40,638 bases of DNA, from positions 1 to 40,638 of the forward strand of contig LJUI01000046.1 of NCBI GenBank assembly GCA_001303705.1. Reading direction: 5' to 3'. The translations under genes were made by a program, and so were the position numbers. Origin of the DNA: a candidate division TA06 bacterium SM23_40 (GTDB taxonomy: Bacteria > LJUI01 > SM1-40). The notes below the pieces were generated by a model, which saw only the letters and a list, made by a program, of their open reading frames with translations, had not been told where the DNA came from and ran no database searches. Shown piece after piece: positions 1 through 23,700 of this stretch (position 1 is the stretch's first letter; every line of letters begins with the position of its first letter).

Positions 1-1
1 G

Positions 2-358
2 GGCGCGACGGCAACCGTCAAGGGCGTCACGGTGATGTCAAGCCGGGTGGACGTGGAGAGTAAAGAGATCATGCGGGAGATGGCGGATGCGATGAGACGC
101 GAGCATCCCGAGGCGATGGCTGGAGTGCTGGGCGCTCTGATCGAAGGGAAGGCGGTTTTTGTAGCGTTCGTAAGTGAGGATCTGGTGAAGGCGGGGAGGC
201 TCAGGGCAGGCGACATCGCGCGGGAGGTGGCGAAGATCGCCGGAGGTGGTGGGGGAGGCAAGCCTCATCTCGCCGAGGCCGGCGGAAAGGATGGAGTGAA
301 ACTCGACGCGGCGCTGAAAGCGGTGCCCAGGGTGATCGGTGAACTCATCGGCGACTGA
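2..358 (+). CDS. alaS: Alanine--tRNA ligase, C-terminal DHHA1/C-Ala domain (5'-truncated by window)
   Basis: Frame open from the window edge; ends with AGDIAREVAKIAGGGGGGKPHLAEAGGKD, the typical AlaRS C-terminal GGxGGG-P-xA-AGG motif. Confidence 0.9.
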   Translation, partial: GATATVKGVTVMSSRVDVESKEIMREMADAMRREHPEAMAGVLGALIEGKAVFVAFVSEDLVKAGRLRAGDIAREVAKIAGGGGGGKPHLAEAGGKDGVKLDAALKAVPRVIGELIGD

Positions 359-673
359 CGGGCCGCGCCCGATGGCCGGCTGCATCAGGCCCGTGATGGA
401 GTCCGGAATATGCGCCGGCAGGTTGGGACTGTCATCCCGATGGGACTCGACATCCTCGAATGGGTCGCCGCGGGGCAGTTCCGAGCGTGGCGCCCGGTCC
501 TATCGACTCCGGGACAGGGCACCTGCGCCGAGGGGGCCGGACCTCGGAGAGATCGGGCAGCGGGGACTGTACACCATTGAGCGGATCGTGATCCAGTATA
601 TCGGGAGCCTCGGTTGACTGCTGAGCGTTATCGCCCGGCAGCGATGGAGATTCGGCAGAAGGAAGGCGGAGAT

Positions 674-1765
674 ATGGGGGCGATCAGAAGAAAAGAGACG
701 AATCGAAGCACGAATGTCAGATATTCGTTTCTGAAGATTTTGACGGGATCGGATCTGTCGCGCAGACGCCTGCCCTTCATGGCAGCGGAGAGTTCCCGGC
801 CGGGTCCCGTCCTCTGGGTGACTGCCTGTGGTCATGGTGATGAAGTGGGAGGCGCCGTCATCATCCAGGAGATCTTCAAGAGAATACGTCGGTCAGGCCT
901 GTCGAGAGGTTCTCTCTATTCGTTTCCCCTGATGAATCCAATCGGGTTCGAGACCAGTTCTCGGAACATCACCCTCACGAAAGAGGACCTCAATCGATCT
1001 TTCCCGGGAAACGTGAGCGGATCTCTGGGTGAGAGAATAGCAGATAAGATATTCACGTCCATTATGCAGACGAATCCTGCGCTCGTCGTAGATCTCCACA
1101 ATGACTGGATACGATCCATCCCCTACACCGTCATTGATCCTGAGTCGGACATTCAACGCGAACAGGTGTGTGAGAAGGCCAGAAGCTTCGCCGGCAAGAC
1201 GGGGCTCCTGATCGTCCGCGAGACCGACGGGCTGGAAGGAGCCTTGACCTACAACTTGCTCAAGAACGACGTGCCGGCACTCACACTCGAACTGGGGGAG
1301 TCCTTCGTTGTCAACGAGAAGAATATCCAATATGGAATCGAATCCCTCGGGAATATTCTATCTGATCTGGAAATGATGGAGCCGGGGGACGAGCCTTTTG
1401 CATATCCACTGCCAGAAGCATATGAGGGGAGGATCTTGGCATATTCTGATAGACCTCTCTGTTCTACGAGTGGCATTATCAGATTCCGGGCTAAACCGGG
1501 CGACCTCGTCAAGGCGAGACAGCCGATAGCTAAAATATACAATGCCTTCGGGAGATTGCAGGAGACAGTCCTCGCTCTCAGCGATGGTATTGTCCTGGGG
1601 CACTCCGATTCATCGGTGGCCTTCCCGGGTATGCCAGTCATGGCGTTCGGCGTTCCGAGGGAGCATCTTCGGACACAGGACGATGCGAAACGGGTTGGGG
1701 GTGAGAGGAGAACGGCTGAACGACATATCGGTGGGGCGAAGAGAGGTCGTCCTCGGACAGGTTGA
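674..1765 (+). CDS. Succinylglutamate desuccinylase/aspartoacylase family (M14-like Zn peptidase/deacylase)
   Basis: Motifs ACGHGDEVGG, DLNRSFPG, VDLHND, LTLELGE and a C-terminal barrel-sandwich segment (GIIRFRAKPGDLV). ATG 674 follows a purine-rich RBS. Confidence 0.88.
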   Translation: MGAIRRKETNRSTNVRYSFLKILTGSDLSRRRLPFMAAESSRPGPVLWVTACGHGDEVGGAVIIQEIFKRIRRSGLSRGSLYSFPLMNPIGFETSSRNITLTKEDLNRSFPGNVSGSLGERIADKIFTSIMQTNPALVVDLHNDWIRSIPYTVIDPESDIQREQVCEKARSFAGKTGLLIVRETDGLEGALTYNLLKNDVPALTLELGESFVVNEKNIQYGIESLGNILSDLEMMEPGDEPFAYPLPEAYEGRILAYSDRPLCSTSGIIRFRAKPGDLVKARQPIAKIYNAFGRLQETVLALSDGIVLGHSDSSVAFPGMPVMAFGVPREHLRTQDDAKRVGGERRTAERHIGGAKRGRPRTG

Positions 1766-1792
1766 CACGATAGCCATCAACCGCGGTAGGAT
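1762..1792 (+). promoter_or_regulatory. Possible sigma70 promoter for the methyltransferase-ATP-grasp gene
   Basis: TTGACA (1762-1767), 19 nt, TAGGAT (1787-1792); the spacer is long. Confidence 0.35.
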
Positions 1793-1978
1793 AGCGGTGA
1801 GGTTGAGTTCACAGATCGCAGAGGAGTGGGGTGTTCGGCGAGGCATACTCTCTGGAATCGTGTTGCGGTAGACTCCCGCTGGCTGAAACGAAGAACGAGG
1901 GAACAAAGAACGGAGTTCGGGCGTTGCGGATTTCGTCCTCAGTGCAGAGGGCGCGCATCTGACGGCAGGGGGAGGGAG

Positions 1979-3958
1979 ATGAAGGAAGAGACACCGAGAA
2001 ACAGGCGTTCCCAGAAGGCGAAGGCTCCCTCAGCGGCGACGAAATCACTGGGGCCTGTTTCGAGCCTGGAAGAGCATGTGCACGCCGATTGGTGGCGGCG
2101 GATTTTTGGCTCAGTCTACCTGAAGACGGACGCCGATGTGATCGACGATCAGCGGATCACCGCGAAGGAGGTCGACCTCTTCGGAGAGATACTGAAGCTG
2201 ACTCCCGAAGATAGGGTCCTCGATCTGTGCTGCGGCCAGGGACGGCACAGCCTCGAGCTCGTGAGAAGGGGGGTGCGGAACGTCGAGGGTCTGGATCGCT
2301 CCCACTACCTCATTCAGAAGGCGAGATCGCAGGCCAGGAAGGAAGGACTGACCATCAGATTCAGGGAAGGAGACGCGAGAAAACTCCCGTACCCTGCCGA
2401 CACGTTCAGTGCCGTGATGATTCTGGGAAACAGCTTCGGCTATTTCGAGACTGCCCAGGACGATATGCGGGTCCTGAGGGAGGTTCAGAAAGTCCTCAAA
2501 CCCTGGGGGCGCGTTCTCATCGATGTCGCCGACGGGAAATACCTGAGGCGGGAGTTCCAGCCCCGGTCGTGGGAATGGATCGACAAGAAGCAGTTCGTCT
2601 GCCGGGAGCGCTGCCTGTCAGTGGATGGGCAGCGGCTCATCTCACGAGAGGTCGTGACTCACGTGGAAAAAGGTGTGGTCGCGGACCACTTCTACGCTGA
2701 GAGACTCTACAGTCGTCAGAGCTTGACCGAGCTGCTGGAAGCGGCTGGCTTCAGCGACGTAACGTTCCATGGAGAGATCTCGCCCGAGTCCGAGCGGAAC
2801 CAGGATCTGGGGATGATGGAGCGGCGGATTGTCGCGACTGCCGTGGTGAGAAAGGAATGGTCGCCTGTGAGGCGCAGGAAAGAGCAAGCAAGCCATATCG
2901 TCGTGGTGCTCGGCGACCCCACGAAGCCCGATCTGCTGAAGCCGTCGAAGGTCTTCGACGAAGATGACATCTACACGATCGATCAGCTGAAGAGCGCTCT
3001 TCGAGATATGCAGGACTATCAGTTCACGTATCTGGATAACCACGACACGTTGATCCAGGATCTGTTAAGGGCGAAGCCGAAGATCGATATGGTCTTCAAT
3101 CTCTGCGATGAGGGTTTCAGCAATGACGCCACGAGGGAGCTTCATGTGCCTTCCTTGCTCGAAGTTCTGGGAATCCCGTACACGGGTGCCGGCCCGCAGT
3201 GTCTCGCGTACTGCTACGACAAATCGCTCGTCCGGGGAATCGCGAAGGAGATGGAGATCCCTGTTCCGGAGGCGTTCTTCATCAAGCCTGAAGACAAGGC
3301 ATTCGAGCTTCCCTTTGCGTTTCCTGTGATCGTCAAGCCGAATGTCGGCGACTCCAGCTTCGGGATAACGCAGAGGAGTGTTTGCCACAGTATCGAGCAG
3401 CTCGTCGACGCCATCTCAGAGATACGAGAGAGATTCGGCTACGAGAAGCCGATCCTGGTTGAGGAGTTCCTGACCGGAAAGGACCTGAGCCTCGGCATCA
3501 TCGGGAACCCGCCCGAGTCGTACAGGACCCTTCCGATCATCGAGGAAGACTATTCGACGCTTCCCCCCGAACTCCCTCGAATATGCGGGTACGAGGCGAA
3601 GTGGATGCCGGATTCGCCGTACTGGAAGATACGATCGATACCCGCGGAGCTGCCGGATGAGACCGAGAAGCTCATCATCGAGTGGTGTCTCAAGCTCTTC
3701 GAGCGACTTGAGTGCAGGGATTACTGCCGATTCGACTGGAGGCTGGATGGGGCCGGCAACCCGAAGCTGCTCGAGGTGAATCCCAACCCTGGATGGTGTT
3801 GGGACGGGCATCTGGCGAAGATGGCGAAAACGGTGGATATCCCCTATGCGGAGATGCTGGATGGCATACTGCGGGCGGCCGAGCAGCGATTGAGACTGCA
3901 GTCATCGCGCGGGGAGAGGGAGGAGAATGCCGCTGCAGATCCGCCGATATCGACATAG
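1979..3958 (+). CDS. Class I SAM methyltransferase fused to a D-Ala-D-Ala-ligase-like ATP-grasp domain
   Basis: N half: VLDLCCGQGRH, EGDARKLP, LKPWGRVLID. C half: VFNLCDEG, GIPYTG, DKSLVR, FPVIVKP..GDSSFGI, LVEEFLTG, YCRFDWR, LLEVNPNPG. GGAGGGAG directly precedes ATG 1979. Confidence 0.9.
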   Translation: MKEETPRNRRSQKAKAPSAATKSLGPVSSLEEHVHADWWRRIFGSVYLKTDADVIDDQRITAKEVDLFGEILKLTPEDRVLDLCCGQGRHSLELVRRGVRNVEGLDRSHYLIQKARSQARKEGLTIRFREGDARKLPYPADTFSAVMILGNSFGYFETAQDDMRVLREVQKVLKPWGRVLIDVADGKYLRREFQPRSWEWIDKKQFVCRERCLSVDGQRLISREVVTHVEKGVVADHFYAERLYSRQSLTELLEAAGFSDVTFHGEISPESERNQDLGMMERRIVATAVVRKEWSPVRRRKEQASHIVVVLGDPTKPDLLKPSKVFDEDDIYTIDQLKSALRDMQDYQFTYLDNHDTLIQDLLRAKPKIDMVFNLCDEGFSNDATRELHVPSLLEVLGIPYTGAGPQCLAYCYDKSLVRGIAKEMEIPVPEAFFIKPEDKAFELPFAFPVIVKPNVGDSSFGITQRSVCHSIEQLVDAISEIRERFGYEKPILVEEFLTGKDLSLGIIGNPPESYRTLPIIEEDYSTLPPELPRICGYEAKWMPDSPYWKIRSIPAELPDETEKLIIEWCLKLFERLECRDYCRFDWRLDGAGNPKLLEVNPNPGWCWDGHLAKMAKTVDIPYAEMLDGILRAAEQRLRLQSSRGEREENAAADPPIST

Positions 3959-4076
3959 GGAGGGTCTCTCTCGGAGCTGACGTCTTCTCCCGGAGCCGGG
4001 CCGATTGCGAGTCGGGGACCAGGTCTCGGTCGCGGTTGGCGCCGCCTTCCGGAAGGAGCGCCTGTATCAGGTAGAG

Positions 4077-4110
4077 CGAGGCGCCGGGATTTCGCGCTCC
4101 CGGCGCCTCG
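4077..4110. terminator. Perfect 13-bp inverted repeat between convergent genes (probable bidirectional terminator)
   Basis: CGAGGCGCCGGGA, 8 nt loop, TCCCGGCGCCTCG; no U tract. Confidence 0.6.
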
Positions 4111-4125
4111 TCGTGCATACAGCGG

Positions 4126-4581
4126 CTATCCTGCCTGGAGCTCGGAGGTGCAGAAAGCGCAGCGGGTGGCCTTGAGGGGAATGGCGGAGAAGCAGTAGGG
4201 GCATTCTCTGGTAGTCGGTTCCTCCGGAGGCGCTTCCTCCTTCCGCTTCAGCCTGTTGAGGTAGCGAATGATGAGGAAGACTGAAAAGGCGATGATCACG
4301 AAACTGATGATCGTGTTTATGAAGACACCATAGTTGATCGTCACGGCGCCGGCTGTCTGGGCGTCGGCGAGAGACGCGTAGGGGCCGGCGGTCGCGCCTT
4401 GTCTCAGTAGCGCGAACATATTGGTGAAGTCGACATTGCCCAGGAGAAGGCCTACCGGCGGCATGATGATGTCCGCGACGAGCGATCTGACGATGGTGCC
4501 AAAGGCGGCGCCGATAATGATACCGACGGCCATGTCCACAACATTGCCGCGTACCGCGAACTCCTTGAACTCTCTGAACAT
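4126..4581 (-). CDS. mscL: Large-conductance mechanosensitive channel with C-terminal zinc ribbon
   Basis: [27 protein letters not shown]...[18 protein letters not shown], followed by CPYC-x10-CAFC. Confidence 0.97.
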
Positions 4582-4636
4582 TTCCGGATCCCCCTTTCTC
4601 CACCTGCCAGATTGATTTCGCGGTGTGATGCGTGAA

Positions 4637-4665
4637 CTGATAGCAGGTGCGGCCTCGAATGTCAA
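4637..4665 (-). promoter_or_regulatory. Putative sigma70 promoter for mscL
   Basis: Minus strand TTGACA, 17 nt, TATCAG with an extended -10 TG. Confidence 0.5.
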
Positions 4666-5031
4666 GGCGAAAGAATATCGACCCAATCGAGTCTCGAGAT
4701 CCAGGGACGCCGCTGGTGCTCCCGCTGTCCATCGGGGTCCCGTGTATGAATGCCGATCAGAAGTATTGCAGATCGGGATGCATTCGTGCTACCGTGAAGG
4801 CGAGCCGTTTTGAAATGATCGGCGCATTGTCGTAGCCCGCTTGCCTTTGTCGCCGCGCTTCGGATCCTCGTGGCGTTCGACTCTTCATTCCCCGTTCGGT
4901 GGCCGTGGAGAGAGGCGGGCCCGTGAGCAGCGGGGCATGACGCGGGACTTCGGGGAGGAGTGAGTGGCGGGGGCGAGCGCAGCAGCGTCTGTTACTGAGA
5001 GTACTGAGAGGACTGCAGCCGGAGGAATGCT

Positions 5032-10371: not shown

Positions 10372-10435
10372 TATTCTCTCCGGTGGTATCCCCCACGGGG
10401 ACTCCACACGAAGGCCGACTGAGCGATATACCGCC

Positions 10436-10464
10436 TTGACTTGTCCTCCCGCGGCTGGCACAAT
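10436..10464 (+). promoter_or_regulatory. Putative sigma70 promoter upstream of the GGR-GGGPS cluster
   Basis: TTGACT, 17 nt, CACAAT with an extended -10 TG. Confidence 0.5.
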
Positions 10465-10813
10465 GGGTCATCGACTCCGGCCGGCCTATTCGCCCTGACA
10501 CCCCGTACGGGCCGGGTGTGATCTACGGGCGACCCTGTCCGATCTGTTGTTGACTGGGGCCGAGCCCCTGGGATATACTCACGTTCGCCGTGAGCATATG
10601 TGGGTTCCGATTGCCGGCTTTGCCACGGTTAGCAGCGCCGTCTGCGACCGAGATCCCGGCTCGCGCCATGTCGAACGCCGGGAACCGGTTCCGGGCATCT
10701 CGCTCGGCCACGGTACACGCAGTCCCAATCGCATGACAGGGGACGTGCACCTCGGATGTTGGCCGAAGGGGCAGCAGAGAGACGAGGAATCGTCGGAGGA
10801 TATTCGAAACACG

Positions 10814-12034
10814 ATGCCGCAGACGACGGATTCACCGACGCGGGACATCTCCTGGACGGAAGCGTCGCCTCACGATTGTGTGGTCGTGGGAGCAGGCCCG
10901 GCCGGGTCGATGGCCGCCAGGGCGGCAGCCGAAGGCGGGGCCAGTGTCCTCCTCATCGAGGAAGACTGGGAGATCGGCGTGCCCCTCGTCTGTGCCGAGG
11001 GGGTGGGAAAAGAAACGCTCGCCCAATTCGTCGATGTCGACCCGAAGTGGGTAGCATCGAGGGTGGAGGGAGCGATCTTTGTCTCTCCCAGCGGCCGCCG
11101 TGTCCGCGTCAACTATCCGGATGCCGGGTACATCCTCGAGAGAAAAGTCTTCGATCGCGATCTTGCGGCCCTGGCAGCCGCGGCTGGGGCGCGGGTACAG
11201 GTGGGATTGGAGGCGGTTGGGGTCAGCCCCGGGGAGAATGGACTCCACAGGGTCGAGGTTCGGCGCGGCGATGAGAAGGGGACCATCGAGGCGCGCCTGG
11301 TCATCGGGGCTGATGGGTTTCGTTCCCGAGTCGGGCGATGGGCCGGGCTCGATACGAGGCTGAAACCCGGGGAGATCCACAGCTGCGTGCAATATCTGGT
11401 GGCCGGTGCGGACGTTGAAGAGCACTACCCGGAGTTCACGGCGGGGAGAGAGATCGCGCCGGGAGGGTACGCGTGGGTCTTCCCCAAGGGAAGGGGGACG
11501 GCGAACGTCGGGGTGGGGATCTCGCCGGTCACGGCGAAACAGAGCGCGCTCGAATATCTCGAGCGCTTTCTCGATCAGCGGTTTCCGGGGGCGATGAGAT
11601 TGGAGCGGATGGTGGGAGGCGTCCCCGCGAAACCCCAGGAGCGCCTCGTCGGCAACGGTCTCCTTCTCGTCGGCGATGCCGCTCGCGTCGCCGACCCGAT
11701 CTCGGGCGCCGGTATCATCAACGCCCTCGCGTCGGGAACAATGGCAGGGCAGATCGCCGCAGCGGCACTGCGCGAGGGGGATGTCTCCGGGAGGCGCCTC
11801 GCCGCCTACCAGGATGAGTGGGAACGCACGATCGGTAAAGACATCCGATTCCGCGCCCGTATCCGCGATGTCTTCCTCAAACTGACAGACGCGGATTTCG
11901 AGGCGATCCTCGATGTTGGAAGTAAGCTGTTCGCAAAAGGGGATGTCCGGTCGATCGATCCATACCAGGTAGTGAGGGCAATCATCACATCGAGTCCGCG
12001 TTTTCTGAAGATCGCCAGACACTTGCTGCAGTAG
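10814..12034 (+). CDS. Geranylgeranyl reductase family flavoprotein (resembles archaeal DGGGPL reductase)
   Basis: VVGAGPAGS FAD motif, IGVPLVCAEGV, ILERKVFD, APGGYAWVFPKG (PxxYxWxFP), LVGDAARVADPISGAGI. Start codon uncertain. Confidence 0.9.
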   Translation: MPQTTDSPTRDISWTEASPHDCVVVGAGPAGSMAARAAAEGGASVLLIEEDWEIGVPLVCAEGVGKETLAQFVDVDPKWVASRVEGAIFVSPSGRRVRVNYPDAGYILERKVFDRDLAALAAAAGARVQVGLEAVGVSPGENGLHRVEVRRGDEKGTIEARLVIGADGFRSRVGRWAGLDTRLKPGEIHSCVQYLVAGADVEEHYPEFTAGREIAPGGYAWVFPKGRGTANVGVGISPVTAKQSALEYLERFLDQRFPGAMRLERMVGGVPAKPQERLVGNGLLLVGDAARVADPISGAGIINALASGTMAGQIAAAALREGDVSGRRLAAYQDEWERTIGKDIRFRARIRDVFLKLTDADFEAILDVGSKLFAKGDVRSIDPYQVVRAIITSSPRFLKIARHLLQ

Positions 12035-12125
12035 CGCCATCCATCCGTCTGCGTGGGAATATCGACCGGCTCTATCGGCTGCCGACTGCAGCGCAGAGAG
12101 TGGGCTCTGCTCCGGGAGAGAAACA

Positions 12126-12881
12126 ATGGGGGGACGACCATCTGTCTTTGAGAATCTGATGGATGTGGCTCGTGAGAAGGGCGCTGGTTATCTGGTCCTC
12201 CTCGATCCCGACCGACTCGATACCGCAAGGCTCCGTGCTATGGCCCGAGAGGCGTCAGACGGTGGTGCGGATGCAATCCTCGTGGGGTCGAGCCTTCTCC
12301 TCTCAGATGAGTTCGACGAGATAGTCGCTGCCGTGAAGAAGGCGGCGACGGTTCCCGTCATCCTGTTTCCTGGCAGCGCCAGTCAGGTGTCGCGCCATGC
12401 CGACGCCATCTTCTACCTGTCGCTCGTGAGCGGCCGGAATCCGGATCTGTTGATCGGTGAACATGTGAAGGCAGCGCCACTGCTCAAGCGGTACGAAGTA
12501 GAGGTGATTTCGGTGGCGTACATGATCGTGGAGTCCGGTACGCTGTCGAGCGTGGGGTACATGAGCCACACGCTGCCGATTCCCCGGGACAAGGCGGACA
12601 TCGCCATGGCCCATGCGCTGGCCGGGGAGTTTCTGGGGATGAAGATGGCGTATCTCGACGCAGGGAGCGGCGCCGGTCACAGCGTTCCCACGGCGATGGT
12701 CGAGGCCGTGCGCTCATATATCTCCATTCCGCTTATAGTCGGTGGTGGGATCAAGACACCCCAACAGGCCGGTAAGATAGTGGAGGCAGGAGCAACGTTC
12801 GTGGTAACAGGCAATGTCCTGGAGGAGGACGCCGATCGCCTGCAGGAGTTCGCCCGTGCGATCCACCGTGAGGCCAGTTAG
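12126..12881 (+). CDS. Geranylgeranylglyceryl/heptaprenylglyceryl phosphate synthase (group II GGGPS type)
   Basis: LVLLDPD, DAILVGSS, PVILFPG, ADAIFYLSLVSGRNP..LIG, YLDAGSGA, PLIVGGGI, VVTGN. Confidence 0.95.
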   Translation: MGGRPSVFENLMDVAREKGAGYLVLLDPDRLDTARLRAMAREASDGGADAILVGSSLLLSDEFDEIVAAVKKAATVPVILFPGSASQVSRHADAIFYLSLVSGRNPDLLIGEHVKAAPLLKRYEVEVISVAYMIVESGTLSSVGYMSHTLPIPRDKADIAMAHALAGEFLGMKMAYLDAGSGAGHSVPTAMVEAVRSYISIPLIVGGGIKTPQQAGKIVEAGATFVVTGNVLEEDADRLQEFARAIHREAS

Positions 12882-12943
12882 CTGCTTACTCGCCAGGAGA
12901 CGAGACGCGGTTCTCCTCTTGCACTAACGGAAGGAAGGGATCG

Positions 12944-13675
12944 ATGAAAGGTGTCATCCTTGCCGGAGGGCTCGGGACGAGACTCTTCCCGCTCACCAAG
13001 ATCACGAATAAACACCTGTTGCCGGTGTACGATCGGCCGATGATCTACTATCCGATCCAGACACTCGTCGACGCGGGGATAGAAGATATCATGGTCGTGA
13101 CAGGCGGGACGAACGCGGGCGATTTCCTCCGCCTGTTGGGAAACGGGCGAGAGTTCGGACTGAAGCATCTGCGGTATGCTTACCAGGAACGCGAAGGTGG
13201 CATTGCCGAGGCGGTCGGCCTTGCCGAGCACTTTGTTGAGGGGCAGCCGATCGCGGTGATGTTGGGGGACAATATCCTCGAGCGCGGCATCGGCGACGCC
13301 GTGGAGGAATTCCGGCGACAGGGATCCGGGGCGAGAATTCTGCTGAAGGAGGTGGAGAACCCCGCAGCGTATGGCGTTGCCGAGCTCGTCGGGAATCGGA
13401 TCATCAACATCGAGGAAAAGCCGAAGGAACCGAAGAGCAATCTCGCGGTCATCGGGATATACATGTATGACAATCGAGTCTTTGAGATCATCAGGACACT
13501 GGAGCCATCGGAGCGAGGGGAGCTGGAGATCACCGATGTGAACAACGCGTACATCCGTGATGGGTCTATGCACTACTCGATCCTCGAAGGTTGGTGGGCG
13601 GACGCGGGCGAGTCGGTGGAGATGCTTCACGAGGCGAATGTCCTGGTCGCGCGGCAGCGGAGGGGAAAAGCGTGA
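12944..13675 (+). CDS. Sugar-1-phosphate nucleotidyltransferase (glucose-1-phosphate thymidylyltransferase, short SpsI/RmlA type)
   Basis: MKGVILAGGLGTRLFPLT, KHLLPVYD.PMIYYP, LGDNI, EEKP, SERGELEITDVN. Confidence 0.93.
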   Translation: MKGVILAGGLGTRLFPLTKITNKHLLPVYDRPMIYYPIQTLVDAGIEDIMVVTGGTNAGDFLRLLGNGREFGLKHLRYAYQEREGGIAEAVGLAEHFVEGQPIAVMLGDNILERGIGDAVEEFRRQGSGARILLKEVENPAAYGVAELVGNRIINIEEKPKEPKSNLAVIGIYMYDNRVFEIIRTLEPSERGELEITDVNNAYIRDGSMHYSILEGWWADAGESVEMLHEANVLVARQRRGKA

Positions 13676-14517
13676 GGGTCCTGTTGACGGGGGCGCGCGG
13701 TATGTTGGGAACGGACCTCTCTGCCCTGATCCGGGAGCGGCACGAACTCCACCCGATCGACATCGAGGAGGTCGATATCACCGATGGGCCGGCGACGATG
13801 GCTCTCATCGAGAAGATACGGCCTGATGCTATCATTCACACTGCGGCCTACACTGATGTTGATGGCTGCGAGTCTCATGTCGATCAGGCATTTCAGGTCA
13901 ATGGGGAAGGGACACGCCACGTTGCGGAAGGGGCACACCGCTCCGGAGCATCGATGCTCTATGTGAGTACGGACTATGTATTCGATGGGAAGAGTGCCAG
14001 CCCGTATCGGGTGGAGGATGAGCCGCGGCCGATGAGCGTGTACGGGAAGTCGAAACTCCGTGGTGAGGTGTATACTCGGGAGCTCGCGGCGCAACACTAC
14101 ATAGTGCGCACCGGATGGCTGTACGGTGAACACGGGGCGAACTTCGTGGAGAAGGTCATCGGCCTCGCCCGGGATCGGCCGCGACTGGAGATAGTGGACG
14201 ATCAGGTGGGCTCCCCGACCTATTCGAAAGATCTCGCCCCCGCACTCCTCAGGCTCGTCGAGAGCGGGCGGTTCGGCACGTATCATGTGACCAATGATGG
14301 AAGTTGCTCGTGGTTTGAATTCGCCCGACATATCCTGGATCTCGCCGGCATCGAAGACATTGAGGTGGTACCCACGACCTCAGAACGGCTGGCGAGGCCG
14401 GCGCCTCGTCCGCCATATTCAGTGCTCGACAATTCGGCGTGGCGCGAGGTATTCGGCAGTGGCCTGCGCCACTGGCGGGAGGCGATCGAGGAGTATGTGA
14501 GGCACCGGCCTCGGTAG
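13672..14517 (+). CDS. rfbD: dTDP-4-dehydrorhamnose reductase
   Basis: TGARGMLG, HTAAYTDVD, STDYVFDG, YGKSK, DQVGSPT, RPPYSVLD; GTGA overlap with the previous gene. Confidence 0.96.
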   Translation: MRVLLTGARGMLGTDLSALIRERHELHPIDIEEVDITDGPATMALIEKIRPDAIIHTAAYTDVDGCESHVDQAFQVNGEGTRHVAEGAHRSGASMLYVSTDYVFDGKSASPYRVEDEPRPMSVYGKSKLRGEVYTRELAAQHYIVRTGWLYGEHGANFVEKVIGLARDRPRLEIVDDQVGSPTYSKDLAPALLRLVESGRFGTYHVTNDGSCSWFEFARHILDLAGIEDIEVVPTTSERLARPAPRPPYSVLDNSAWREVFGSGLRHWREAIEEYVRHRPR

Positions 14518-14572
14518 CCTTCATGGCGCGATCCCGCTGTGGGTAACGGAACTCCTTTACATAGGTCTTGCC

Positions 14573-15078
14573 GTGGAAGAGAAGATCGAAATCGTGCGGG
14601 CCTCGTTGCGCGAGAGCGCCAAGCTCAAGGAGGAGCTGGCGGCCAGCGCATCAGATGTGATCGCCGCCATCGCGGTCGCGGTCGTCGAGACCGTGCGCCG
14701 AGACGGGAAGATCCTCCTCTGCGGCAACGGCGGGCTCTGAGCACCAACAGCTCTGTGGTTACTGCGGTGGCCAATGACCGCGGATGGGAGTGGGTATTTC
14801 TGCGGCAGGTGGAGGCGTTGGGAAAACCAGGAGATATGCTCTTCGGGCTGAGCACAAGCGGCCGCTCCGAGAACGTGATCCGAGCCATAGCGAAGGCTAA
14901 AGAGATTGGCCTGGCGACTGTCGTCTTCACGGGCCTCGGGGGAGAAGAACTCGCCCGGCAAGCGGACTGGTCGATTGTCGTCCCCTCCCGCGACCCACAG
15001 CGGATACAGGAGGCGCACGTCGCGGTAGGACACGTCATCTGCACTCTGGTTGAGGAGGAGGTCGCCCGTTGGGGGTGA
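14573..15078 (+). pseudogene. gmhA: D-sedoheptulose-7-phosphate isomerase with an internal deletion and frameshift
   Basis: Frame A (14573-14740) reads ...DGKILLCGNGGL*. Frame B resumes at 14734 with ALSTNSSVVTAVAND...STSGRSENV...QRIQEAH. The segment normally between GNGG and ALxT is missing. Confidence 0.85.
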
Positions 15079-15953
15079 TGCGGCTCGAGTCGTTTGCGAA
15101 GGTGAATTTCGGATTGGAGATAGTCCGCCGGCGCCAGGATGGTTATCACGACATCCGAACCGTGCTGACTACCATAGGTCTGGCGGACGCGATAGAGATT
15201 GAAGCGATAGACGGACCTCAGCTTGTCGTCGAGTGTGATGATCCAGAGATCCCCACTGATGAGGGCAATCTAGTCGTACGGGCAGCACGCGCCCTGTCCG
15301 GTGCCGCGGGATCGAGGCGCGGTGCGCGCATCAGGATCGAGAAGAGGATACCGGTATCTGCCGGCCTGGGCGGGGGGAGTTCCAACGCCGCCACCGTCCT
15401 CCGCGCGCTCAATCTGCTCTGGTGGGCCGGGCTCGATCATTCGAAGATCGCCCAGATTGCGGCGACTGTGGGTTCTGACGTCCCGTTTTTCCTCCGTGGC
15501 GGGGCTGCGGTCGCCAGTGGCAGAGGCGATCGTCTGGAACCGATTCCCGACCCCCCTCCGCTCTGGATAGTGCTGGTCAATCCCGGCATCCAGGTCAGCT
15601 CAGCGTGGGCATACGGCGCGTATAGACGGGCGAAAATGGAGTTGACAAACGCTGGTGCCCGGATTAATATGGCGATCAGCGGGTTCCGGAGCAACGATGC
15701 CGCTCGCATCGGAGCCGGTATGTATAACGCTCTGGAACCTATCGTCTTCTCTGAGTATCCGGAGCTTCGCTCGATCAAAGAGGAGCTCCTCTCCTTCTCT
15801 GCGCTGGGCGCATCCATGTCTGGCAGCGGCTCCGCGATATTCGCGCTGGCAGAGGATGAGGAGTCTGCACGGGAGATCGGGCAGGCGATGGAGGACCGCG
15901 GACATCGCACGTGGGCGCTCAGCACCTGTCATGAGGCGGCTCGTCTCGAGTGA
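15078..15953 (+). CDS. ispE: 4-(cytidine 5'-diphospho)-2-C-methyl-D-erythritol kinase
   Basis: AKVNFGL, DGYHDI, KRIPVSAGLGGGSSNAA, GSDVPFF, MSGSGS; TGATG overlap with gmhA. Confidence 0.97.
   Translation: MRLESFAKVNFGLEIVRRRQDGYHDIRTVLTTIGLADAIEIEAIDGPQLVVECDDPEIPTDEGNLVVRAARALSGAAGSRRGARIRIEKRIPVSAGLGGGSSNAATVLRALNLLWWAGLDHSKIAQIAATVGSDVPFFLRGGAAVASGRGDRLEPIPDPPPLWIVLVNPGIQVSSAWAYGAYRRAKMELTNAGARINMAISGFRSNDAARIGAGMYNALEPIVFSEYPELRSIKEELLSFSALGASMSGSGSAIFALAEDEESAREIGQAMEDRGHRTWALSTCHEAARLE
15642..15670 (+). promoter_or_regulatory. Near-consensus sigma70 promoter inside ispE
   Basis: TTGACA (15642-15647), 17 nt, TAATAT (15665-15670), upstream of tRNA-Gln and prs. Confidence 0.65.
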
Positions 15954-16017: not shown

Positions 16018-16091
16018 TGGGGCGTCGTCAAGTGGCAAGACACAGGACTTTGGATCCTGCATCGGAGGTTCGAATCCTCCCGCCCCAGCCA
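16018..16091 (+). tRNA. tRNA-Gln(TTG) with encoded CCA
   Basis: Acceptor TGGGGCG/CGCCCCA; anticodon arm CAGGA-CTTTGGA-TCCTG; T arm GGAGG-TTCGAAT-CCTCC; canonical position between ispE and prs. Confidence 0.97.
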
Positions 16092-21741: not shown

Positions 21742-22179
21742 TTGCCAGGCACAAGGAGGTATGAGATACTCTTCATCCTGGATGCAGGGCTCGAGGACGC
21801 TGCGTCGAACGAGAAGATCGACAAAGTGACGGCGATCATCAAGGACGGAGGCGGAGAGGTCGTTTCGATCGATAAGTGGGGAAGGCGGGAGTTGGCTTAC
21901 GAGATCGACAAGAAGCGCATGGGGTTCTATGCACTGATCCAGTTCGAGGGATCTAAGCCGATTCTCGACGAGCTCGACAGATTGCTGAAGCTCGATGAGG
22001 CATTCCTGCGCTACCTAACGACCAGGACGATCGAAAAGGGTGCGCCGGCGCAGCGCGAGGAGCGCGGAGAGGGGGAGACAGGCGACGACGCAGAGCCTCC
22101 TCCGGCTCCCGCCGAGCCCGAGCCCGAGGCAGAGTCCACCCCCGTCAAGGAGGTCGATGGATTCGGCGCCATCACCTGA
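21742..22179 (+). CDS. rpsF: 30S ribosomal protein S6
   Basis: RRYEILFIL, WGRRELAYEI, LRYL; TTG start after AAGGAGG. Confidence 0.95.
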   Translation: MPGTRRYEILFILDAGLEDAASNEKIDKVTAIIKDGGGEVVSIDKWGRRELAYEIDKKRMGFYALIQFEGSKPILDELDRLLKLDEAFLRYLTTRTIEKGAPAQREERGEGETGDDAEPPPAPAEPEPEAESTPVKEVDGFGAIT

Positions 22180-22344
22180 TTCGAGCGGACTGCCCGGTAT
22201 CGCCGGGCGAGCGACCCTGCGGCCGTTCCGGCGAGAAGGTCGCCGCAGCGCCTGTCGTCATGAGTCGCACGCCGGGAGGTTCGCGCAATGGGAGAACCGG
22301 GTGTATGTCTGTCGCATCACGAGCGGTGAGATGTGGAGGCCATC

Positions 22345-22788
22345 ATGGCTGATCTGCGATTGCCTACGTTGAACAGGGTGTTACTGACCGGGCGGCTGAC
22401 GCGCGACTGTGAGTTGCGATATACGCCGAGCGGCGTGGCTGTAACGAACTTCTCCATCGCCTGTAACCGTCGGTACAAAGATCAGAGTGGGGAGTGGAGG
22501 GACGAGACGACCTTTGTCGGTATAGTGGCGTGGCAGAGGCTTGCCGAACGCTGCGGGGAGTATCTGCACAAAGGGAGCGCAATAATGGTCGAGGGCAGGC
22601 TCCACAGCCGAAGCTGGGAGACTGAAGACGGCCAGCGCAGGAGCATTCTCGAAGTGAGAGCTGACCGCGTGGAATTCCTCGATCGGCTCGGAGCTGAGGA
22701 GAGGGCGGCGGCGACAGCGACGACAGAGAGTCCGAAGGCGGATGAGCCCGAGACCACGCCCGGAACCGATGATGACGTTCCATTCTAG
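22345..22788 (+). CDS. ssb: Single-stranded DNA-binding protein
   Basis: LNRVLLTGRLTRD.ELRYTPSG, VEGRL, C-terminal DDDVPF. Confidence 0.97.
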   Translation: MADLRLPTLNRVLLTGRLTRDCELRYTPSGVAVTNFSIACNRRYKDQSGEWRDETTFVGIVAWQRLAERCGEYLHKGSAIMVEGRLHSRSWETEDGQRRSILEVRADRVEFLDRLGAEERAAATATTESPKADEPETTPGTDDDVPF

Positions 22789-22865
22789 GAAATAGTGTCA
22801 CGTGGCCTCTGTCTGTGTTATCCTGCCGGGCGGCCCCCAAATCGATGATGTCGAAGGAGGGATAG

Positions 22866-23099
22866 ATGGCATTTGAACGACGTTTTCGCAAGAAGGTCTG
22901 CAAGTTCTGCGTCGAGAAGATCAAGGAGATCGACTACAAGGACGACAAGCGTCTGCGCAGATTCATGACTGAGCGTGGACGCATCGTGCCCCGCCGGATC
23001 ACCGGGACGTGCGCCAAGCATCAGCGACAGCTGACGATAGCGATCAAGCGGGCGCGGCACATGGCGCTCCTCCCGTATGTGACGGAGTACTATCGGTGA
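22866..23099 (+). CDS. rpsR: 30S ribosomal protein S18 (Zn-ligand-retaining form)
   Basis: [40 protein letters not shown]. Confidence 0.98.
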
Positions 23100-23256
23100 T
23101 TGGAGAGGTGGGCGTCCGTTGCGGTCATTGAGCGACGGTGCGGCGGGCTGAACAGAGGAATCGGCGCCACGTCTCCCCTACTGAGGTGTTGGGCCGTGGG
23201 GGCCGGCAGATGTGGCAGCAGGGCACCACGAAAGATACTTGAGGGACGACGAGACT

Positions 23257-23700
23257 ATGCAAGTGATTCTGCTGGAGGATATCGATCGCCTGGGGAAGCG
23301 TGGATCGGTCGTTACGGTGGCCGATGGATACGGGAGGAACTATCTCCTCCCGCAGCGGAAGGCGGTAACTGCGACGCCGGGTAACCGAAAGTGGTTCGAG
23401 CAGGAGGAGAAACAGGCCGGCGTTCGCGCCGAAAAGGCGCGTCGCGAGGCCGAGAGGATCCAGAAGAAGGTCGAAAAGCTGTCGTTGACGGTCGTCGTCC
23501 AGGCAGGAGAGGATGACAAGCTCTTCGGGGCTGTCACCTCGCAGACCATCGCTCAGTTGCTCAAGGATCAGGGAGTGGAGATCGACAGGCATAAGATCAT
23601 TCTCGAGGGACCGCTCAAGGAACTCGGCGTGTACACGATTCCCATACGGCTCCACAGCGACGTCGAGGCGCACGTGAAACTCTGGGTCGTGCGCGAGTAG
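23257..23700 (+). CDS. rplI: 50S ribosomal protein L9
   Basis: MQVILLEDI..LGK.G, VADGYGRNYLLP, KLFGAVT, LKELG. Confidence 0.97.
   Translation: MQVILLEDIDRLGKRGSVVTVADGYGRNYLLPQRKAVTATPGNRKWFEQEEKQAGVRAEKARREAERIQKKVEKLSLTVVVQAGEDDKLFGAVTSQTIAQLLKDQGVEIDRHKIILEGPLKELGVYTIPIRLHSDVEAHVKLWVVRE

Follow-up and report, generated by a model that had tools for sequence, protein, structure and literature searches.

We analyzed a 40,638-nucleotide (nt) stretch of DNA from the candidate division TA06 bacterium SM23_40, referred to here as the window, which is the entire contig C164 (LJUI01000046.1) of a metagenome-assembled genome (MAG). The MAG comprises 2.88 Mb in 189 contigs and is 89.8% complete and 1.3% contaminated. 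The window, which has a G+C content of ~61%, carries on its forward strand a gene for a flavoprotein of the geranylgeranyl reductase (GGR) family that resembles digeranylgeranylglycerophospholipid (DGGGPL) reductases (P0001, 406 amino acids; positions 10814 to 12034). This gene is followed, after a gap of 91 nt, by a gene for a group II geranylgeranylglyceryl phosphate synthase (GGGPS; P0002, 251 amino acids; positions 12126 to 12881, same strand). Both assignments are based on Pfam, NCBIfam, and PDB matches. A reading made from the DNA letters alone, without database searches (the sequence-only reading), had proposed an archaeal-type ether lipid gene pair at exactly these positions and in a clearly bacterial setting, and our searches bear out both proposals: the remainder of the window includes tRNA-Gln, prs, bL25/Ctc, pth, an H+/Na+-translocating pyrophosphatase, ychF, rpsF, ssb, and rplI.

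Group II GGGPS enzymes form an ether link between a C20-type prenyl diphosphate and glycerol phosphate. P0002 matches the Pfam PcrB family (E = 1.5e-46) and passes both the TIGR01769 GGGP synthase equivalog (213.3 bits; cut-off, 161.55) and NF003198 (288.2 bits; cut-off, 247). It scores ~178 to 180 bits against the group II structures 4mm1, 4jej, and 5nf1, and the matches to the hexameric M. thermautotrophicus enzyme (4mm1) and the dimeric F. johnsoniae enzyme (4jej) have E values of ~5e-52 and are nearly full length. Scores against the group I structures are far lower, at 42.3 bits for PcrB (1viz) and 40.6 bits for AfGGGPS (2f6u), and the heptaprenylglyceryl phosphate synthase (PcrB, group I) equivalog NF003197 gives 29.4 against a cut-off of 260. 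Tyr145 of P0002 aligns with W141 of the M. thermautotrophicus enzyme, which is the aromatic anchor at the ring interface that is described as marking hexameric group II GGGPS (PMC7888582); the F. johnsoniae enzyme, in contrast, has no aromatic residue at the anchor position. Based on these sequence matches, we conclude that P0002 is a group II GGGPS. It has in common with the PcrB/AraM heptaprenylglyceryl phosphate pathway of B. subtilis that a glycerol phosphate-prenyl ether bond would be made in a bacterium (PMC7888582, PMC6431249), but it differs from PcrB in group, and no AraM-type dehydrogenase was found in the MAG.

P0001 falls well within the GGR family, scoring 82.3 bits (E = 2.4e-23; cut-off, 27) against Pfam GGR_cat (PF22578) and 214 bits (cut-off, 158.8) against NCBIfam TIGR02032 (GG-red-SF), and it is the sole GGR-family gene above cut-off in the MAG. 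Its best solved match is 3oz2, the DGGGPL reductase of T. acidophilum (224 bits; E = 2.8e-65; residues 19 to 372), while the structure of the Sulfolobus enzyme gives 85 bits. The top-scoring NCBIfam subfamily is the Thermoplasmatales DGGGPL reductase model, at 231 bits. The sequence-only reading had allowed that the reductase might instead group with MenJ- or ChlP-type enzymes, but P0001 scores only 130.9 on BchP-ChlP (cut-off, 343), 80.3 on ChlP (cut-off, 505), and 72.5 on MenJ (cut-off, 700), all of which are under cut-off. The motifs listed for archaeal GGRs in a 2024 review (PMC10821996) are GxGxxG, a conserved cysteine (Cys47), RxxFD, PxxYxWxFP, and LxGD; P0001 carries every one of them, as GAGPAG, the cysteine of PLVCAEG, RKVFD, PGGYAWVFP, and LVGD, respectively, and shares them with 3oz2, whose PVRCGEG aligns with PLVCAEG. 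The ferredoxin-dependent GGR of Methanosarcina acetivorans (Isobe et al. 2014, cited in PMC7852524) belongs to the same family. We found no ferredoxin domain fused to P0001 and no ferredoxin gene beside it, and in this it is unlike the Fer4-fused GGRs that adjoin GGGPS in bacterial metagenome contigs, which also belong to another GGR clade. Taken together, the scores and motifs mark P0001 as a flavin-dependent enzyme of the euryarchaeal DGGGPL reductase type.

The longest open reading frame (ORF) for the reductase opens at a TTG at position 10547, and the version in the protein database (P0003) has 478 residues. We take ATG 10814 as the start because most GGR homologues in the protein search are ~380 to 395 residues long, because the extension has no ferredoxin-like cysteines, and because a GGAGGA lies 12 nt ahead of this ATG; the 478-residue call probably starts too early. 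A concealed ferredoxin domain at 10547 to 10813 was considered and rejected, since there is no CxxC in this interval, P0003 has no Fer4 match, and no ferredoxin ORF lies in the gap.

The arrangement of the two genes is consistent with a single transcript. There is no terminator-like or promoter-like match within the 91 nt between them, and a 442-nt noncoding gap (10372 to 10813) separates the GGR start from the upstream DUF3078 gene. This gap contains two forward-strand sigma-70-like sequences, TTGACT-17-CACAAT (10436 to 10464) and TTGACT-18-TATACT (10550 to 10579), each a consensus match only. A promoter predicted in this gap would give a leader of ~230 nt, and no riboswitch or other known RNA was detected in it at Rfam gathering scores. 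The stretch is present partly or wholly in 12 DNA runs (marine sediment, seawater, estuary, and other metagenomes) and was not listed for any RNA run. Logan contigs from four DNA runs were aligned to positions 10400 to 15300. The GGR-GGGPS junction is bridged by a contig of run X1, which is possibly the source sample (record 1; 10400 to 13049; 1 difference), and likewise by a contig of run X5, which comes from a separate study and has scattered base differences (record 11; 11112 to 12221; 7 differences).

As the sequence-only reading had stated, the window contains neither a digeranylgeranylglyceryl phosphate synthase (DGGGPS) nor a glycerol-1-phosphate (G1P) dehydrogenase. A search of the genome for DGGGPS, G1P dehydrogenase (EgsA/AraM), CarS, and geranylgeranyl diphosphate (GGPP) synthase, which that reading had suggested as a check, gave a mixed result: a DGGGPS-like UbiA was present, CarS and EgsA/AraM were not found, and the one candidate for the prenyl donor was a single atypical PF00348 gene below cut-offs. 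The MAG has four UbiA-family genes, of which one, on contig C90 (L001:1432-2274, minus strand), adjoins uppP. The C90 UbiA is 37 to 41% identical (E = 1e-49 to 2e-68) to UbiAs that lie within UbiA-GGR-GGGPS clusters of other bacteria, compared with 26% identity to the MenA-like paralogue in its own genome. The other three are this MenA-like protein, one resembling decaprenyl-phosphate phosphoribosyltransferase, and one UbiA without a clear subfamily. The sequence-only reading had suggested that the product could be a mono-ether, and the DGGGPS-like gene on C90 weakens that suggestion. CarS (PF01864) had no match in the MAG, while the positive control matched in all four archaea. No G1P dehydrogenase was found in the MAG with PF13685 (Fe-ADH_2), whose sole match, on C45, is a generic iron-containing alcohol dehydrogenase with choline dehydrogenase, ErcA, and lactaldehyde reductase as its best models. 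The genes expected for bacterial lipids are there: two of the CdsA family, PlsY and after it, where the contig ends, the beginning of GpsA, and one ketoacyl synthase.

This gene set is a further instance of a kind already published for the FCB group (Fibrobacteres, Chlorobi, and Bacteroidetes and their relatives), the precedent to which the sequence-only reading had appealed. Coleman et al. (2019, PMC6431249) surveyed 12 FCB-group phyla and reported orthologues of GGGPS and DGGGPS in every one of them but a G1P dehydrogenase only in Fibrobacteres and Cloacimonetes. Villanueva et al. (2020, PMC7852524) obtained unsaturated archaetidylglycerol in E. coli that expressed Cloacimonetes GGGPS and DGGGPS, and described Cloacimonetes MAGs with Euryarchaeota-like GGRs and genes of the methylerythritol phosphate (MEP) pathway but no CarS and no G1P dehydrogenase. 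A 2026 paper (PMC13400652) still knows of no other way to G1P. Judged by gene content, the present MAG matches the Cloacimonetes/FCB set, with a group II GGGPS, a DGGGPS-like UbiA, a euryarchaeal-related GGR, CdsA, PlsY, and GpsA and without a detected CarS or G1P dehydrogenase. The arrangement is different, since in Cloacimonetes GGGPS adjoins DGGGPS and a polyprenyl synthase (PMC7852524), whereas in the window it adjoins GGR and the UbiA gene is on another contig. Colocalization of GGGPS with DGGGPS in bacteria seemed, in the 2020 study, to be confined to Cloacimonetes (PMC7852524). We found no mention of a GGR-GGGPS gene order in the main text of that study, and its supplements may already show GGR positions. 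What we add is the lineage, the GGR-GGGPS order, and UbiA-GGR-GGGPS trios in other bacterial contigs.

In order to compare gene orders, we assembled 92 GGGPS loci: 5 from 40 comparison genomes, 7 from a scan of a genome collection, and the 80 best among 578 matches confirmed in a metagenome scan. Neighboring ORFs were clustered, and the weak hits L012 to L014 were dropped. Some of the 92 loci are near duplicates, so the counts given below overstate independence. A search of the genome set restricted to the phylum returned this MAG and no second species, and the 40 comparison genomes share only the domain with it; the 5 that carry GGGPS do so at 46 to 52% identity. The metagenome relatives are 47 to 60% identical to P0002, and the nearest named GGGPS relatives (55 to 58%) are from Zixibacteria, Latescibacteria, Gemmatimonadota, and a MAG labelled Deferribacteres. 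The closest protein matches of all are P0004 (92%), P0005 (78%), and P0006 (66%) for the GGR and P0123 (83%) for the GGGPS, and the loci of these four are not among the 92.

A co-oriented GGR is the gene immediately 5' of GGGPS in 8 of the 65 loci with at least 1,200 nt of upstream sequence and in 9 of the 81 with at least 400 nt, the added locus (L016) being from a Poribacteria MAG. Adjacency in relatives, on which the sequence-only reading had been prepared to stand or fall, is thus a minority state among the judgeable loci, a count from which the closest relatives P0004 to P0006 and P0123 are absent. By far the commonest first upstream neighbor is alaS (35 of 65), mostly with recA-recX before it, and recA-recX-alaS-GGGPS is the commonest order at bacterial group II GGGPS genes (e.g., L022, L024, L043, and L081). 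UbiA is the first upstream neighbor in 5 of 65. The loci in which GGR directly precedes GGGPS include L028, L031, L038, L054, L058, L060, and L072, and in all of these except L054 the pair belongs to a row of four genes: a metallohydrolase of the CehA/McbA family, a DGGGPS-like UbiA, GGR, and GGGPS. This row occupies approximately positions 1 to 4750 in each contig. The contigs have no assigned taxon and are bacterial by gene content; GGR-linked contigs carry hrcA-grpE-dnaK-dnaJ, rpsF-ssb-rplI-dnaB, a eubacterial ribD, or a GspD secretin. The GGGPS-linked GGRs of these other bacterial contigs are 457 to 498 residues long and have an N-terminal 2x[4Fe-4S] domain. DGGGPS-like and GGGPS genes are thus colocalized in the six four-gene rows in an order unlike that of Cloacimonetes. 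The order known from Cloacimonetes, with GGGPS beside UbiA and a polyprenyl synthase, was seen in L065, L066, L078, L080, and L088, which are also without an assigned taxon.

The phylogenies of both proteins that the sequence-only reading had proposed were built, and in each of them the window stands apart from the other GGR-GGGPS pairs. The GGGPS tree has 102 rows, including a single Nitrososphaeria outgroup row; the 195-residue ORF of L054 was below the length cut and was left out. In this tree the window and its 83%-identical relative share a long separate branch, within a 91-row clade (SH-aLRT support, 98) that consists mostly of alaS-linked loci. Seven of the eight GGR-linked rows are excluded from this clade and fall in two basal groups, and the eighth, L033, which is inside it, carries a ferredoxin only. 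In the GGR tree (37 rows), the window groups with P0004, P0005, and P0006 (support, 100) and loosely with rows labelled Stahlbacteria, Zixibacteria, and Limisphaerales. The GGGPS-adjoining GGRs form an 11-row clade (support, 99). Together with rows from Methanothrix, Methanocellales, KSB1, and Latescibacteria and one labelled Euryarchaeota, this clade makes up a larger one of 19 rows (support, 99), and the window's group falls outside the larger clade. Because the window is separate from the other paired loci in both trees, the GGR-GGGPS pairing probably formed at least twice. Formation on more than one occasion argues for a functional link, that is, for a shared pathway. Some caution about repeated origin comes from the genes rpsF-ssb-rplI, which are directly 3' of GGGPS in two Fer4-GGR-GGGPS contigs, L054 (2462 to 4042) and L072 (4983 to 6534); their presence near GGGPS in these contigs and in the window may be the remnant of a very old shared neighborhood. 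In the window they are at 21742 to 23700, ~9 kb 3' of GGGPS.

The sequence-only reading also described a row of codirectional genes downstream of GGGPS, namely, rmlA-like, rfbD, gmhA, and ispE. We find this row on the forward strand as described, except that the assembly has a broken gmhA-like gene. The first gene (12944 to 13675) encodes a short RmlA-like sugar-1-phosphate nucleotidyltransferase of 243 residues (NTP_transferase, E = 5.9e-55) that is under the cut-offs of both rmlA (239; cut-off, 361) and rmlA_long (238; cut-off, 320), and its alignment to the latter model covers only positions 1 to 235 of 353. Its stop is overlapped by the GTG start (GTGA, 13672 to 13675) of a gene for RmlD, dTDP-4-dehydrorhamnose reductase (13672 to 14517; TIGR01214, 331.9; cut-off, 224), which has GGAGGGG upstream. 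A full dTDP-rhamnose gene set is not evident in the MAG: an RmlB-like protein on C145 scores 354 against a cut-off of 365, and the best RmlC match, on C101, scores 32 against 156 and has an in-frame TAG.

The GmhA-like SIS-domain gene (14573 to 15078) is in two frames that meet at a break at 14733/14734, and the copy, broken as assembled, scores 121 on the TIGR00441 gmhA equivalog (cut-off, 209). Homologue residues 5 to 51 or 7 to 58 align in one frame up to 14734, and residues 80 to 189 or 88 to 196 align in another frame from 14734 on, so that ~28 residues (homologue positions ~52 to 79 or 59 to 87), including an SAADxQHxAxE stretch, are lost at the break. Two Logan contigs span the break, record 3 of run X1 (3,128 nt) and record 14 of run X5 (2,901 nt), and each has 79 extra bases there. 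Since 79 is 1 modulo 3, the extra bases would restore the frame. An error of assembly or a strain variant is thus the most likely cause of the break, and we set aside the possibility of a true pseudogene. The last gene of the row, ispE (15069 to 15953), encodes the 4-diphosphocytidyl-2-C-methylerythritol kinase of the MEP pathway (TIGR00154, 247.1; cut-off, 138.7). It overlaps the stop of the GmhA-like gene and heads a conserved ispE-tRNA-prs-ctc-pth block. There is no IspE homologue near GGGPS in any of the 92 related loci, and the link between ispE and GGGPS is for this reason probably positional only.

Genes for sugar metabolism recur 3' of GGGPS in the related loci as well. A GmhA-like gene is the first downstream neighbor in 17 of 72 loci and is within the first two in 21 of 58; nine GGGPS-adjacent GmhA-like homologues score 130 to 209 bits, all under the gmhA equivalog cut-off of 209.45. 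Genes for CpsB/CapC-type PHP phosphoesterases and GmhA-like, Wzx-like, or Wzy_C proteins recur in this position. Homologues of the window's RmlA-like protein, at 68 to 84% identity, are encoded directly 3' of GGGPS in L008, L032, and L033, and an RmlA-type gene together with RmlD is 3' of GGGPS in L008, L081, and L083. In L008 (genome G004), GGGPS, the short RmlA gene, and RmlD overlap by 4 nt. L081 and L083 have the full RmlA/RmlD/GmhA-like trio with a PHP phosphoesterase between, and L081 has a true rmlA_long (474 bits; cut-off, 320) and a true RmlD. L032 and L033 have an RmlA-type gene without RmlD. L033 was examined as a second GGR-GGGPS-RmlA locus and rejected, its upstream ORF being only a 75-residue 2x[4Fe-4S] ferredoxin. 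Among the 92 related loci, none combines a GGR upstream of GGGPS with a GmhA-like gene downstream as the window does. Our literature search for a GGGPS-gmhA link turned up no paper in which GGGPS and phosphoheptose isomerase are named together. One GGGPS clade (L067, L079, L092, and L095; also L050, L061, L068, and L073) has genes for a ribokinase-like PfkB, HPr, phosphotransferase system enzyme I, and a sugar-1-phosphate nucleotidyltransferase downstream. An NDP-heptose pathway around GGGPS was considered and is not supported, as the PfkB neighbor resembles ribokinase and not HldE, and the nucleotidyltransferases belong to the RmlA type.

Based on the gene assignments, the contents of the MAG, and the recurrence of the pair, we consider it reasonably probable that the two genes are a cotranscribed GGGPS-GGR unit of a bacterial branch for archaeal-type isoprenoid ether lipids, with a DGGGPS-like enzyme encoded elsewhere and CdsA in the place of CarS. 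A promoter within the 442-nt gap would drive both GGR and GGGPS, the C90 UbiA would add the second chain to the GGGPS product, and the GGR would saturate the prenyl chains. With CarS absent, a CdsA-family enzyme would activate the diether, and the CdsA of E. coli is reportedly able to activate such diethers. The backbone would be glycerol-3-phosphate, or G1P from another source, since no G1P dehydrogenase was found. As the PlsY/GpsA/fatty acid route is kept, the ether lipid would be part of a mixed membrane or a minor species.

Several observations weigh against this interpretation. P0001, from a bacterium, is under all three DGGGPL reductase equivalog cut-offs (231 of 780 for NF041160, the Thermoplasmatales model; 137 of 580 for NF041080; and 81.5 of 700 for NF041385). 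The C90 UbiA is also below cut-off, scoring best on PRK12884 (229.8; cut-off, 269) and 183.9 on the DGGGPS model PRK12882 (cut-off, 296); a UbiA tree had very long branches and did not place this enzyme, so pairwise scores were used instead. The MAG has one trans-polyprenyl synthase (PF00348; P0244, contig C76, L102:1402-2388), which has similar scores, all below cut-off, on solanesyl, heptaprenyl, IdsA, and octaprenyl models. It has Ala/Thr and no aromatic residue at positions -5/-4 before a DDxxD motif without an insertion, and consequently neither of the sequence rules for GGPP synthases, type I or type II (PMC9385802), applies to it. No separate synthase for farnesyl diphosphate or GGPP was found in the MAG, though GGGPS and the MenA-like enzyme would each require a prenyl donor. 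The suggestion of the sequence-only reading that the lipids are built from MEP-derived isoprenoids is thereby weakened, IspE being the one MEP pathway gene that was checked. The MenA-like enzyme makes a prenyl-quinone substrate for the GGR possible. In the related loci GGR-GGGPS adjacency is a minority state and alaS is the more usual neighbor, both trees come from a quick search (LG+G4, SH-aLRT support), and with ~10% of the MAG missing, each genome-wide failure to find a gene is weak evidence.

The genes downstream of GGGPS suggest a different use of its product, as a minor, nonphospholipid prenylglyceryl mono- or diether that is dephosphorylated and sugar bearing and acts as the anchor of, or acceptor for, a glycoconjugate that contains rhamnose or heptose, the GGR only tuning the chains. 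The short gaps or overlaps that join GGGPS to the RmlA-like, RmlD, and GmhA-like genes in the window are consistent with this, as are the same trio 3' of GGGPS in L081 and L083, the 4-nt overlaps in L008, the frequency of GmhA-like genes within the first two downstream positions, and the recurrence of PHP phosphoesterase, Wzx-like, and Wzy_C genes. The failure to find CarS and G1P dehydrogenase in the MAG fits as well, and there is a precedent in B. subtilis, where the product of PcrB is a dephosphorylated, modified mono-ether (PMC7888582, PMC6431249). However, recA, recX, and alaS are unconnected with lipids and yet accompany GGGPS even more constantly, so that inheritance of gene order suffices to account for the sugar gene pattern. 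The window cluster has no glycosyltransferase, RmlC was not found in the MAG and the RmlB-like gene is elsewhere, loci with GGR upstream never have a GmhA-like gene downstream except in the window, and the MAG has a DGGGPS-like gene. We judge this account rather unlikely, and the glycosylation that the sequence-only reading entertained is left with neighborhood support, from RmlA/RmlD or GmhA-like genes that follow GGGPS in other phyla too. The wider proposal, that the product of GGGPS, both in this lineage and in several related phyla, is the saturated isoprenoid ether anchor of a rhamnose- or heptose-bearing cell surface glycoconjugate and not a bulk archaeal-style phospholipid, seems to us unlikely. 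If true, it would explain why GGGPS is co-operonic with RmlA/RmlD, GmhA-like, PHP phosphoesterase, and Wzx/Wzy-type genes, why CarS and G1P dehydrogenase are dispensable, and what purpose bacterial GGGPS serves.

It might also be that the adjacency is incidental and that the GGR acts on some other polyprenyl compound, such as the side chain of menaquinone, polyprenols, or carotenoid-like lipids, in the manner of MenJ and archaeal prenyl reductases. The MAG does encode a MenA-like prenyltransferase and a polyprenyl synthase with a medium- or long-chain look, archaeal GGR paralogues have been proposed to act on quinones and polyprenols (PMC10821996), and 57 of the 65 GGGPS loci have no GGR nearby. 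We think this quite unlikely in view of the low MenJ and ChlP scores of P0001, the fact that its nearest solved relative is a lipid reductase, its standing as the only GGR-family gene in the MAG, and the recurrence of the GGR-GGGPS pairing in separate lineages, six times with a DGGGPS-like gene. Very improbable, in our estimation, is an operation of these enzymes in the reverse direction, or for salvage, with archaeal lipids taken up from sediment as substrates. Such a role was raised for FCB bacteria without G1P dehydrogenase by Coleman et al. (PMC6431249), and it would suit both the failure to find this enzyme in the MAG and the occurrence of the organism's DNA in marine sediment and estuary metagenome runs. 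Nevertheless, it is hard to see what the saturation of double bonds by a reductase would contribute to breakdown, the cluster has no lipase or etherase genes, and the Cloacimonetes homologues run in the synthetic direction in E. coli (PMC7852524).

Bacteria with ether lipid genes of archaeal type bear on the "lipid divide" and on the origin of isoprenoid ether lipids in sediments. The lineage found here, which is deep and otherwise unsampled and is represented in marine sediment, seawater, and estuary runs, is added to the known carriers of such genes, and the GGR-GGGPS pairing, which elsewhere is a UbiA-GGR-GGGPS trio, has formed in bacteria outside Cloacimonetes. The two-gene unit and one UbiA gene make a compact set for expression tests of saturation and backbone stereochemistry.

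Upstream of the GGR are genes for subunits of a 2-oxoacid:ferredoxin oxidoreductase, two GNAT acetyltransferases, and the DUF3078 protein, and tRNA-Gln(TTG) is at 16018 to 16091, between ispE and prs. A 710-residue ORF at 1826 to 3958 has a class I S-adenosylmethionine-dependent methyltransferase domain and a C-terminal ATP-grasp domain of the D-Ala-D-Ala ligase type.

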